From the NCBI RefSeq assembly GCF_011045215.1, contig NZ_CP049201.1: a stretch of 64,000 bases of DNA; one strand, given 5' to 3'. The notes under the pieces are model-generated. The model made no database searches. It had not been told where the DNA came from and saw only the letters and a program-made list of their open reading frames with translations. This DNA comes from Escherichia coli. GTDB lineage: Bacteria > Pseudomonadota > Gammaproteobacteria > Enterobacterales > Enterobacteriaceae. The translations under genes were made by a program, and so were the position numbers. Shown piece by piece: positions 1 through 43,232 of the stretch (position 1 is its first letter; every line of letters begins with the position of its first letter).

Positions 1-1147
1 ACCTATCGGCTGCTTTCGCGGTGCGTTAGCGGGTCATTCCGCCGTGGAACTTGGTAGTCTGGTCGTGAAAGCGTTAATAGAACGTACCGGCGTTCCTGCA
101 TATGCGGTGGATGAAGTAATTCTTGGTCAGGTGTTGACTGCAGGGGCAGGGCAGAATCCGGCAAGGCAATCGGCTATTAAAGGTGGTCTTCCTAATAGCG
201 TTTCTGCAATCACGATTAATGACGTTTGCGGTTCTGGGCTTAAAGCACTGCATCTGGCTACTCAGGCGATACAGTGTGGCGAGGCTGATATTGTCATCGC
301 CGGTGGCCAGGAAAACATGAGCCGCGCACCACATGTTCTGACTGATAGCCGCACCGGTGCACAGCTTGGCAATAGCCAGTTGGTTGACAGTCTGGTGCAT
401 GATGGGTTGTGGGATGCCTTCAATGATTATCATATTGGTGTCACCGCCGAAAATCTGGCTCGCGAATATGGCATCAGCCGTCAGTTGCAGGATGCTTACG
501 CACTTAGCTCGCAACAAAAAGCGCGAGCGGCGATTGACGCCGGACGATTTAAAGATGAGATCGTCCCGGTAATGATCCAAAGTAACGGTCAGACGTTGGT
601 TGTTGATACCGATGAACAGCCACGCACTGACGCCAGTGCAGAAGGTTTAGCCCGTTTAAATCCTTCATTTGATAGTCTCGGTTCTGTGACCGCGGGGAAT
701 GCATCATCCATAAACGATGGCGCAGCTGCGGTAATGATGATGAGCGAAGCCAAAGCACGAGCGTTGAATTTACCCGTGCTGGCCCGCATCCGCGCATTTG
801 CCAGCGTTGGTGTAGATCCGGCATTGATGGGAATTGCGCCGGTGTATGCGACCCGCCGTTGCCTGGAGCGTGTAGGCTGGCAGTTGGCTGATGTCGATCT
901 TATCGAGGCTAATGAAGCGTTTGCTGCACAGGCGCTTTCGGTTGGCAAGATGCTTGAGTGGGATGAGCGTCGGGTCAATGTCAATGGTGGCGCGATCGCA
1001 CTCGGTCACCCGATAGGCGCTTCCGGTTGCCGAATCCTGGTTTCTCTGGTTCATGAAATGGTGAAACGTAATGCCCGCAAAGGGCTGGCAACGCTTTGTA
1101 TCGGCGGGGGCCAGGGCGTGGCATTGACCATTGAACGTGACGAGTAG
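1..1147 (+). CDS. yqeF: acetyl-CoA C-acetyltransferase (thiolase), 5'-truncated by window edge
   Basis: Reading frame is open from position 2 with no start codon; thiolase motifs (NDVCGSG, CIGGGQG) in translation; lies immediately upstream of kduI as in K-12. Confidence 0.85.
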   Translation, partial: PIGCFRGALAGHSAVELGSLVVKALIERTGVPAYAVDEVILGQVLTAGAGQNPARQSAIKGGLPNSVSAITINDVCGSGLKALHLATQAIQCGEADIVIAGGQENMSRAPHVLTDSRTGAQLGNSQLVDSLVHDGLWDAFNDYHIGVTAENLAREYGISRQLQDAYALSSQQKARAAIDAGRFKDEIVPVMIQSNGQTLVVDTDEQPRTDASAEGLARLNPSFDSLGSVTAGNASSINDGAAAVMMMSEAKARALNLPVLARIRAFASVGVDPALMGIAPVYATRRCLERVGWQLADVDLIEANEAFAAQALSVGKMLEWDERRVNVNGGAIALGHPIGASGCRILVSLVHEMVKRNARKGLATLCIGGGQGVALTIERDE

Positions 1148-1304
1148 CTCTGCATTTCCTCCTTACCGATAAATATCTGCCGTCATTAATCTGTTGAATA
1201 ATGATGGCTGGCAAGTCGACATACATTTTCTGGGCTCCCTCATTTTTCCATTCTCATGACATATTCGTGATCGACACTGCACTTTTTTTAATCCTTAACT
1301 TAAA

Positions 1305-1323
1305 AATGAAACATTGTTTTATT
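1305..1323 (+). promoter_or_regulatory. KdgR operator upstream of kduI
   Basis: AATGAAACATTGTTTTATT matches the KdgR consensus AATRAAAYRNYRTTTYATT at every position; about 110 bp upstream of kduI start. Confidence 0.55.
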
Positions 1324-1371
1324 TTTAATTGAAAACCCTAGCCCATGGGCATATCATCCCTTTATAGAGAA

Positions 1372-1390
1372 AACGAAACAGTGTTTCACT
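1372..1390 (+). promoter_or_regulatory. second KdgR-like operator upstream of kduI
   Basis: AACGAAACAGTGTTTCACT, palindromic GAAACA/TGTTTC core with 2 mismatches to the KdgR consensus. Confidence 0.4.
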
Positions 1391-1433
1391 ATCGTTTTCT
1401 ATTTTCACGCTTCACTGATTATCGGAGGTTGAT

Positions 1434-2270
1434 GTGGACGTAAGACAGAGCATCCACAGTGCGCACGCAAAAACGCTGGATACCCAAGGGCTGCGCAATG
1501 AATTTTTGGTTGAAGAGGTATTTGTCGCCGATGAGTACACCATGGTTTACAGCCACATTGACCGAATTATTGTTGGCGGCATTATGCCGATAACTAAAAC
1601 GGTTTCCGTTGGCGGGGAAGTTGGTAAACAACTCGGCGTAAGCTATTTCCTTGAACGTCGCGAGTTAGGTGTTATCAATATTGGCGGTGCCGGTACGATT
1701 ACTGTCGATGGCCAATGCTATGAAATCGGTCACCGCGACGCCCTGTATGTGGGTAAAGGTGCAAAAGAAGTTGTCTTTGCCAGTATTGATACCGCCACTC
1801 CGGCAAAGTTTTATTACAATTGCGCACCCGCGCATACGACGTATCCCACCAAAAAAGTCACACCGGACGAAGTATCTCCAGTCACGTTAGGCGATAACCT
1901 CACCAGTAACCGTCGCACAATTAACAAATATTTTGTCCCGGATGTGCTGGAAACCTGCCAATTGAGTATGGGGCTGACGGAGCTGGCTCCAGGTAACTTG
2001 TGGAACACCATGCCGTGTCACACTCACGAGCGCCGGATGGAAGTTTATTTCTATTTCAATATGGATGATGACGCCTGCGTTTTCCACATGATGGGGCAGC
2101 CGCAAGAAACGCGTCACATTGTGATGCATAACGAGCAGGCGGTGATCTCCCCGAGCTGGTCGATTCATTCCGGCGTCGGAACCAAAGCTTATACCTTTAT
2201 CTGGGGCATGGTCGGTGAAAACCAGGTCTTTGATGATATGGACCATGTGGCCGTTAAAGATTTGCGCTAG
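1434..2270 (+). CDS. kduI: 5-dehydro-4-deoxy-D-glucuronate isomerase
   Basis: 278-aa ORF, N-terminus [11 protein letters not shown], length and synteny match KduI. Confidence 0.95.
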
Positions 2271-2299
2271 TTGTGGGCATAAACGAATAAGGTATTGTT

Positions 2300-3061
2300 A
2301 TGATTTTAAGTGCATTTTCTCTCGAAGGTAAAGTTGCGGTCGTCACTGGTTGTGATACTGGGCTGGGCCAGGGGATGGCGTTGGGGCTGGCGCAAGCGGG
2401 CTGTGACATTGTTGGCATTAACATCGTTGAACCGACTGAAACCATCGAGCAGGTCACGGCGCTGGGGCGTCGTTTTTTAAGCCTGACCGCCGATCTGCGA
2501 AAGATTGATGGCATTCCTGGACTGCTGGATCGCGCGGTAGCTGAATTTGGTCATATTGATATCCTGGTGAATAACGCCGGATTGATTCGCCGCGAAGACG
2601 CTCTCGAGTTCAGCGAAAAAGACTGGGACGATGTCATGAACCTGAATATCAAGAGCGTATTCTTCATGTCTCAGGCAGCGGCGAAACACTTTATCGCGCA
2701 AGGCAATGGCGGCAAGATTATCAATATCGCGTCAATGCTCTCCTTCCAGGGCGGGATCCGTGTGCCTTCTTATACCGCATCAAAAAGCGGCGTGATGGGT
2801 GTGACGCGATTGATGGCGAACGAATGGGCTAAACACAACATTAATGTTAATGCGATAGCTCCGGGTTACATGGCGACCAACAATACTCAACAACTACGGG
2901 CAGATGAACAACGTAGCGCGGAAATTCTCGACCGCATTCCAGCTGGTCGTTGGGGACTGCCGAGTGACCTGATGGGGCCGATAGTGTTCCTTGCCTCCAG
3001 CGCTTCAGATTATGTGAATGGTTATACCATTGCCGTGGATGGCGGTTGGCTGGCGCGTTAA
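2300..3061 (+). CDS. kduD: 2-dehydro-3-deoxy-D-gluconate 5-dehydrogenase (SDR family)
   Basis: 253-aa ORF with SDR glycine-rich NAD motif (VTGCDTGLG); 29 bp after kduI. Confidence 0.95.
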   Translation: MILSAFSLEGKVAVVTGCDTGLGQGMALGLAQAGCDIVGINIVEPTETIEQVTALGRRFLSLTADLRKIDGIPGLLDRAVAEFGHIDILVNNAGLIRREDALEFSEKDWDDVMNLNIKSVFFMSQAAAKHFIAQGNGGKIINIASMLSFQGGIRVPSYTASKSGVMGVTRLMANEWAKHNINVNAIAPGYMATNNTQQLRADEQRSAEILDRIPAGRWGLPSDLMGPIVFLASSASDYVNGYTIAVDGGWLAR

Positions 3062-42524: not shown

Positions 42525-43232
42525 AAATATCCTCCGGCATAGCCGGAGGTTTTTCAAATGCGCCTATAAGGCTCTCTTACCAGCCGCGCCCTAACAGGCG
42601 CACACGATCTGACATTTGCATCCAACTTCGTTACTTACGGCCCGTAAACGGGCTGCCCGGATAGGGAATCGATAACTGCTCTCCCATTTCATCCTCTTCA
42701 AGCTGGTGCTTTATGTAATCCTGTATCTTCGCCGTGTTCTTACCCACCGTATCGACGTAGTACCCTCTGCACCAGAACTCCCTGTTCCTGTATTTGAATT
42801 TCAAATCCCCAAACTGCTCATAAAGCATCAGACTGCTTTTCCCTTTCAGATATCCCATAAAGCCGGATACGCTCATTTTGGGCGGGATCTCCACAAGCAT
42901 ATGGATATGATCTGCACAGCATTCAGCTTCAAGAATCCGTACGCTTTTCCACTCACACAGCTTTCTCAAAATACTGCCTATTGCTCTACGCTTCTCTCTG
43001 TAGAACACTTGTCTTCGGTATTTTGGCGCAAAAACTATGTGATATTTACAGTTCCATCGGGTGTGCGCTAAGCTCTTTTCGTTCCCCATTGGGACCCCCT
43101 TTTGATTTCTTGTTTGACACTTGCAGTTGCCAGACCGCAAGGTGTTTTAACAAATCAAAAGGGGTTTTAATAACTGGCTCAAAGCTGAAAGCTTTCCGGA
43201 ACCCCCAGCCTAGCTGGGGGTTTTCTGTGCAC
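42525..43232 (-). mobile_element. IS200 insertion sequence (IS200/IS605 family); ends approximate to within about 10 bp
   Basis: Encodes a 152-aa IS200-type Y1/HUH transposase; similar GC-rich subterminal hairpins at both ends (CCCCCAGC-CTA-GCTGGGGG at 43202-43220; CCTCCGGC-ATA-GCCGGAGG at 42531-42549); stem-loop sequestering the tnpA RBS; total about 708 bp. Confidence 0.85.
42631..43089 (-). CDS. tnpA: IS200 transposase TnpA (Y1 HUH transposase)
   Basis: MGNEKSLAHTRWNCKYHIVFAPKYRR...HIHMLVEIPP (HuH motif), 152 aa from the internal Met of the track ORF. Confidence 0.9.
   Translation of the reverse strand: MGNEKSLAHTRWNCKYHIVFAPKYRRQVFYREKRRAIGSILRKLCEWKSVRILEAECCADHIHMLVEIPPKMSVSGFMGYLKGKSSLMLYEQFGDLKFKYRNREFWCRGYYVDTVGKNTAKIQDYIKHQLEEDEMGEQLSIPYPGSPFTGRK

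Follow-up and report, generated by a model that had tools for sequence, protein, structure and literature searches.

Breakdown products of pectin and hexuronates enter the 2-keto-3-deoxygluconate (KDG) pathway by way of the kduI-kduD operon, a function of relevance to E. coli on plant material and in the gut, and the question raised by its upstream region is which DNA elements there form the switch that controls it. Within the window (the whole 64,000-nucleotide stretch of E. coli DNA that was analysed), positions 1–3061 hold the 3′ part of yqeF (an acetyl-CoA acetyltransferase gene, only this part of which lies inside the window), a 286-bp spacer, kduI and kduD, with araE next. The 401 bases around the candidate operators were 100% identical to E. 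coli chromosomes and were found in 5418 of 5426 complete genomes, where the region is annotated yqeF / kduI. The regulated genes and the two sites in the spacer were placed as follows:

1434–2270, + strand, kduI, the regulated gene, with a GTG start
2300–3061, + strand, kduD, regulated gene of the same operon
1424–1428 and 1434–1436, + strand, Shine-Dalgarno sequence GGAGG (conserved) and GTG start codon of kduI, from the annotation of an identical strain
1304–1324, unstranded, O1, primary KdgR-type (IclR-family) operator, AAATGAAACATTGTTTTATTT, centre 1314
1371–1391, unstranded, O2, secondary KdgR-type operator, AAACGAAACAGTGTTTCACTA, centre 1381

The strict KdgR consensus AAATGAAACAnTGTTTCATTT is quoted in PMC5559549, which credits it to two papers (Rodionov et al. 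2000 and 2004). When O1 was compared with this consensus, 19 of the 20 specified positions agreed, the sole mismatch being a T for C at position 1320. Against the degenerate 19-bp KdgR pattern AATRAAAYANTRTTTYATT, the 19-bp sequence AATGAAACATTGTTTTATT at 1305–1323 had 0 mismatches. The preliminary description of this DNA had the site fitting the 19-bp consensus everywhere, which holds in full for the degenerate pattern and nearly so, with one mismatch, for the strict consensus. O2 agreed with AAATGAAACAnTGTTTCATTT at 17 of 20 positions (three mismatches), and its core GAAACAGTGTTTC at 1375–1387 is a perfect 6-N-6 palindrome. The gap from the end of the first site measured 51 bp (1324–1374) and the centre-to-centre distance 67 bp, in keeping with the second palindrome that had been described about 50 bp downstream. 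That palindrome had also been put just before the kduI ribosome-binding site; it does precede the latter, but the wording is loose in that O2 ends 36 nt short of the Shine-Dalgarno sequence (1424–1428), and a more exact description puts the site just past the predicted start of transcription. With up to 3 mismatches allowed, the degenerate pattern found 2 matches in the 64 kb, against 0.26 expected from shuffled sequences, and both were located in the yqeF-kduI spacer.

For a matrix scan of the window, a symmetrised weight matrix was derived from four K-12 boxes, with the kduI sequence left out. These training boxes had been located ahead of published target genes through their match to the consensus, and the resulting matrix is independent of kduI, although not of the consensus:

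kdgK box (K-12), AATGGAACACTGTTTTAAT, matrix training site
kdgT box (K-12), AATAAAACAGCGTTTCAAT, matrix training site
tabA/yjgK box (K-12), AATGAAACGTTGTTTTAAT, matrix training site
ygjV box (K-12), TATGAAACGCCGTTTTTTA, matrix training site

O1 reached 26.9 bits and ranked first of the 63,980 positions in the window, while O2 reached 20.1 bits and ranked second. The leave-one-out scores of the four training boxes, which include the kdgT and kdgK operators named for comparison in the preliminary description, ran from 14.5 to 25.0 bits, and a poor score was thus not seen for either kduI site. None of the accepted K-12 KdgR boxes used for comparison came as close to the KdgR consensus as O1. The third-best score in the window was 16.4 bits, and only 13 positions reached 10 bits. 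The 16.4-bit match (43152–43172, AAATCAAAAGGGGTTTTAATA) overlaps the gcvA start codon (43168), has no link to the pathway and is probably due to chance. A copy of GAAACATTGTTTT at 22736–22748, with the same core as O1, was judged a chance occurrence as well: it falls within the coding sequence of ygdB, has no AT flanks and was outside the top 12 matrix matches. Finally, the spacer palindrome GCCCATGGGC (1341–1350) was rejected as a site, as it was conserved neither within E. coli nor across genera.

A consensus scan of the spacer revealed one sigma-70-like promoter, TTGAAA-17-TATCAT, with 10 of 12 consensus matches. The same kduI hexamer pair is printed in an RNA polymerase holoenzyme gSELEX study, in which H-NS was also flagged for the spacer (PMC3946193).

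1329–1334, + strand, −35 hexamer TTGAAA of the kduI promoter, from the consensus scan
1352–1357, + strand, −10 hexamer TATCAT, from the consensus scan
1364, + strand, predicted transcription start (A1364), 7 nt past the −10 hexamer, from promoter geometry

The ‘CA’ found at the predicted-start distance from the −10 hexamer is 80–90% conserved across genera, and the literature searched yielded no mapped start for kduI. O1 and O2 flank this core promoter of the KDG-pathway operon kduI-kduD, with the end of O1 at 4 bp from the −35 hexamer and the start of O2 at 14 bp past the −10 hexamer. Relative to A1364, O1 extends from −60 to −40 (centre −50) and O2 from +8 to +28 (centre +18), positions that are provisional because the start is a predicted one. 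A 32-codon open reading frame at 1345–1443 was discarded as a leader peptide, since it would begin before the predicted start site and conservation of its ATG was not seen.

Conservation of this arrangement was followed in a KduI scan of a species-representative genome collection, which yielded 80 loci from approximately 25 enterobacterial genera. One locus (L008) was left out, and the counts refer to the remaining 79 foreign loci together with the window, giving 80 sequences. The locus in question (L008 1–4394) is a ‘Deltaproteobacteria MAG’ contig in which a kduI gene 99.7% identical to that of E. coli (L008 541–1473) sits in unrelated flanking DNA; the copied segment runs from 20 nt before the kduI start codon into the start of kduD, without the operators, and looks like a chimeric assembly or contamination.

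O1 was present in 79 of the 79 usable foreign loci, with scores of 18.9–28.1 bits over all 80 sequences, and the distance from its centre to the first −35 base was 15 nt in 80/80. The promoter itself was equally constant, with TTGAAA-17-TAnnAT in 80/80 sequences (the −10 variants being TAAGAT, TATCAT, TACTAT, TAGTAT, TAATAT, TAGGAT and TATTAT) and ATTGAAAA at the −35 region invariant in the 80-sequence alignment. The conserved islands of the alignment were the O1 core TGAAAC...GTTTTA, ATTGAAAAC, the −10 element T-A-n-n-A-T, the O2 sequence AAAACGRAAC...GTTTC and GGAGG, with the DNA between them varying freely. O2 was weaker than O1: it scored at least 10 bits in 62 of the 80 sequences (median 13.9 bits, the E. 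coli copy being the strongest), and its right half was degenerate in several genera while the left half was kept. The O1–O2 spacing was 67 bp in 53 sequences and 68 bp in 21, together 74 of 80. Because O2 is weak or degenerate in 18 of the 80 sequences, it may not be required, and as judged from the alignment O1 is the universally conserved predicted operator, with O2 as a second and more variable site. Sites, matrix scores, placement around the conserved promoter and conservation are all direct observations of the present analysis.

Within Escherichia, the central N alone varied in O1, and the operators of the genus as a whole (including E. whittamii and a cryptic clade) differed only at degenerate positions in the centre and in the outer O2 flank. 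About 30% of the complete E. coli genomes lacked the exact 40-mer around O2 (1362–1401). In the divergent E. coli strains that were fetched, the outer right flank of O2 read ...TTTCATTGTTG in place of ...TTTCACTATCG (CACTATCG to CATTGTTG), and the common E. coli variant of O2, ...TTTCATTG, scored 20.8 bits versus 20.1 bits and is nearer to the KdgR consensus.

These data bear on the trivial explanation that O1 and O2 are chance matches in AT-rich intergenic DNA and have no regulatory role, which we regard as scarcely credible. The region is indeed AT-rich, H-NS has been flagged for the spacer (PMC3946193), and an unrelated match of 16.4 bits does occur elsewhere in the window. However, the two pattern matches, against 0.26 expected, both fell in the spacer upstream of a KDG-pathway operon and took matrix ranks 1 and 2, their cores were invariant across approximately 25 genera in which the surrounding spacer diverges, and published genetics also speak against chance. 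The conservation, as far as aligned loci can tell, effectively refutes this explanation.

Repression of kduI-kduD by KdgR, which the preliminary description had put forward, is borne out by the matrix scores, by the conserved promoter-flanking sites at some 80 loci and by published mutant and induction data. The kdgR gene (b1827), located outside the window, was found in K-12 and in 5424 of 5426 complete E. coli genomes. In the literature, one study counts kduD with ‘the known targets of KdgR’ and reports more of its mRNA in a kdgR deletion on Northern blot (PMC6958661), and kduI and kduD were overexpressed in an RNA-seq i-modulon study when kdgR had been lost by deletion, with KdgR repression being predicted (PMC6892915). 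Comparative genomics had predicted KdgR control of kduID (Rodionov et al. 2000 and 2004, as PMC6958661 and PMC5559549 cite them). Release of KdgR by KDG, the inducer logic, stems from Dickeya (summarised in PMC5559549). In the literature searched, no gel-shift, footprint or ChIP experiment with KdgR on E. coli kduI turned up, and in-vitro binding is reported for PlaR only. Galacturonate or glucuronate raised the expression of a kduI promoter reporter 7- to 54-fold (PMC3578941), and the reporter fragment, when placed by means of the primers, corresponds to approximately 1112–1468 of the window and includes both operators.

The same study used window positions 1881–2380 as a separate ‘kduD promoter’ reporter, for which hexuronate induction was 3- to 20-fold (PMC3578941). 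No KdgR-like box was found in 1881–2380 with the matrix (best score 3.1 bits), and O1 and O2 therefore leave this induction unexplained.

A second regulator acting on the same spacer is PlaR (YiaJ), a paralogue of KdgR. With PlaR, gSELEX recovers the kduI spacer and gel shifts confirm the twelve target probes tested; kduD mRNA goes up upon plaR deletion; plaR mRNA goes up in a kdgR deletion, and vice versa; the PlaR box resembles the KdgR box; and KdgR/PlaR co-regulation was proposed (all PMC6958661). The PlaR effectors named in PMC6958661 are ascorbate and galacturonate, not KDG. We observed the PlaR-type core TGAAAC-N3-GTTYCA in both O1 and O2; it is shared with the PlaR box ATnTGAAACnnnGTTCAnTT printed in PMC6958661, and PlaR’s own yiaK operator ATTTGAAATCAAGTTTCGCAT has the same core motif. 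The strongest PlaR site (plaR-yiaK, TGAAAT-CAA-GTTTCG) scored less than 11.7 bits with the KdgR matrix, versus 27 bits for O1 and 20 bits for O2.

This might in turn indicate that the boxes are primarily PlaR operators and that KdgR affects kduID indirectly, for example via the mutual regulation of plaR and kdgR. The recovery of the kduI region by PlaR in gSELEX, the shifted probes, the raised kduD mRNA in the plaR deletion, the reciprocal rise of plaR and kdgR mRNA and the shared core motif all speak for such a scheme. Nevertheless, we hold it to be very unlikely. O1 outdoes every accepted K-12 KdgR box in its fit to the KdgR consensus, and it is conserved with the kdu genes in all genera sampled. 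Moreover, because a kdgR deletion raises plaR mRNA, an indirect effect via PlaR predicts more repression of kduD, whereas derepression was seen. Dual control by KdgR and PlaR is the simpler reading.

Upstream of O1, an additional element came to light:

1266–1281, unstranded, CRP-like site CGTGA-TCGACA-CTGCA, centre 1273.5, −90.5 from the predicted start

In the alignment, a block CGTGATC......CA was conserved across genera, and the best TGTGA-N6-TCACA match lay 55.5–56.5 nt upstream of the −35 hexamer (−90.5 or −91.5) in 64 of the 80 sequences. The E. coli copy is weak, matching 6 of 10 half-site positions, and the cross-genus consensus CGTGATCgcaattACA matches 8 of 10. The site at 1266–1281 is probably an activator site of the kduI promoter, in keeping with published work in which kduI is listed as Crp-activated (PMC8085971) and is down-regulated upon crp deletion (PMC8846999). 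O2 was also inspected as a CRP half-site (GAAAC-N6-TCACT), a reading that was rejected by inspection given the poor match of its left half.

Very probably, the kduID promoter TTGAAA-17-TATCAT is flanked by two KdgR-type operators through which KdgR and PlaR repress, with relief by KDG and help from CRP. This model takes from published work the derepression seen on loss of kdgR or plaR, the response to hexuronates, the in-vitro binding of PlaR and the dependence on CRP; the position of the start, the steric action at either operator and KdgR occupancy of the individual sites are inferred. Specifically, when inducer is lacking, KdgR dimers on O1 and O2 would exclude RNA polymerase or stop promoter escape, and PlaR/YiaJ, reading the same TGAAAC-N3-GTTTYA core, would also occupy both sites. 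O1 would lie over the contact region of polymerase’s alpha C-terminal domains and, being placed there between the promoter and the CRP-like element, probably blocks activation too. O2, in turn, would overlap the downstream edge of the polymerase footprint. Upon build-up of 2-keto-3-deoxygluconate from pectin or hexuronates, the repressor would leave and kduID would be transcribed with the help of cAMP-CRP. The spacing does not favour cooperative looping of the two operators, because 67–68 bp amounts to approximately 6.4 helical turns and places the sites out of phase. Judging from this geometry, simple steric repression from two promoter-flanking sites, with both KdgR and PlaR input, would be the best-supported model.

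As to sequence, O1 and O2 are the same 21-bp imperfect palindrome with a TGAAAC-N3-GTTTYA core as the K-12 kdgK, kdgT and tabA boxes and the Dickeya and Yersinia pectinolysis boxes (AAATGAAACAnTGTTTCATTT). Compared with the K-12 kdgK, kdgT and tabA boxes, the kduI boxes have comparable or better scores, serve the same pathway of KDG formation and use, and, on the published mutant evidence, are controlled by the same repressor. They differ in number, as two boxes bracket the kduI promoter whereas one strong box was found upstream of each of kdgK, kdgT and tabA. Two-operator repression around a promoter is known from the GalR operators OE and OI at gal and from IclR boxes I and II at aceBAK. At kduI, as in those systems, the first operator precedes the −35 hexamer, in the activator and alpha-CTD region, and the second follows the start, with CRP as co-regulator. 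The gal operators are spaced 114 bp apart, however, in contrast to the 67–68 bp at kduI. The latter distance is also unlike that of tandem IclR-family sites, which are 18–22 nt apart (PMC8222616).

The KdgR-type operators at kduI are confirmed as real, correctly located, correctly interpreted and members of a well-known class, and a sequence-only reading had picked out the kduID regulatory switch correctly. KdgR regulation of kduID has already been described, first as a prediction and later with the backing of mutant transcript data. Because this control was already predicted and supported, the finding is an annotation detail and not new biology; the detail added consists of the operator coordinates, the two-operator geometry, the universal O1 versus the variable O2 and the probable CRP site.

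One loose end with some novelty is a possible RNA hairpin over O2:

1368–1376 and 1392–1400, + strand, perfect 9-bp inverted repeat AGAAAACGA / TCGTTTTCT enclosing the O2 core, candidate hairpin, +5 to +37

The first arm begins 4 nt past the predicted 5′ end of the kduI mRNA. Among 76 distinct leaders, a repeat of at least 6 bp between the left half of O2 and a segment 8–18 nt beyond was found in 18 with Watson-Crick pairing (1.4 expected) and in 30 with G-U pairs allowed (4.2 expected), counts that ignore the shared ancestry of the leaders. Allowing A-C in place of G-U gave 32 versus 13.5 expected, which is little gain over chance. The arm pairs differ by lineage (AACGGA/TCCGTT, AAGCGGA/TCCGCTT, AGTGGA/TCTGCT and AAATGGAAC/GTTCCATTT), and analogous, apparently compensated arms were seen in Citrobacter, Kosakonia, Yokenella/Trabulsiella and Kluyvera. 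The outer stem is absent from the Enterobacter/Lelliottia group, which makes up about half of the genera. RNAalifold returned zero pairs as a consensus structure for the 76 distinct leaders, the folding z-score of the E. coli kduI leader was only −1.39, and an Rfam search produced a meaningless miRNA match alone (E = 0.29).

Part of the conservation in the O2 region may derive from an RNA hairpin and not from the operator. Taken to its limit, this would leave O1 as the only functional operator, with the O2 palindrome kept mainly as a 5′-terminal stem-loop of the kduI mRNA for stability or translation. The nesting of the O2 core in a perfect 9-bp inverted repeat in E. coli, the excess of repeats and the lineage-specific arm pairs among the leaders, and the retention of the left half of O2 where the right half is degenerate in several genera are consistent with such a role. 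Still, it seems unlikely to be the main one: the 20.1 bits of O2 are inside the range of accepted sites, its left half retains the KdgR half-site AAACGRAAC beyond what pairing potential asks for, the absent RNAalifold consensus, the z-score and the lack of the outer stem in about half of the genera speak against a conserved fold, and the repeat counts do not account for common descent. Operator and hairpin roles are, moreover, not mutually exclusive. A more accommodating, if tentative and in our view rather doubtful, possibility is that O2 is dual-coded, its left half-site doubling as the 5′ arm of a kduI mRNA stem-loop whose 3′ arm would have arisen anew, or been compensated, in several enterobacterial lineages. 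If true, the same 30 bp would be a repressor site as DNA and a stability or translation element as RNA, and RNA pairing would constrain the evolution of the operator.

Leaders of the Enterobacter/Lelliottia group (L025, L031, L039, L040 and others) carry a GC-rich hairpin GCC(C/T)-TCGG-GGC at approximately 25–40 nt past O2, which is absent from E. coli.

A 23-aa microprotein reported ‘adjacent to KduI’ (PMC11188072) was sought at the locus and not located. Near the upstream end of the spacer, approximately 30 nt past the yqeF stop, positions 1179–1208 hold a 13-nt imperfect inverted repeat (GCCGTCATTAATC / GAATAATGATGGC) that lacks a T-run, and the scan did not call a terminator at this repeat. 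For E. whittamii, Escherichia sp. E1V33 and a divergent ‘E. coli’ strain (L009–L011), CAG takes the place of the yqeF stop codon TAG (1145–1147), and the yqeF frame must therefore end elsewhere in those lineages.
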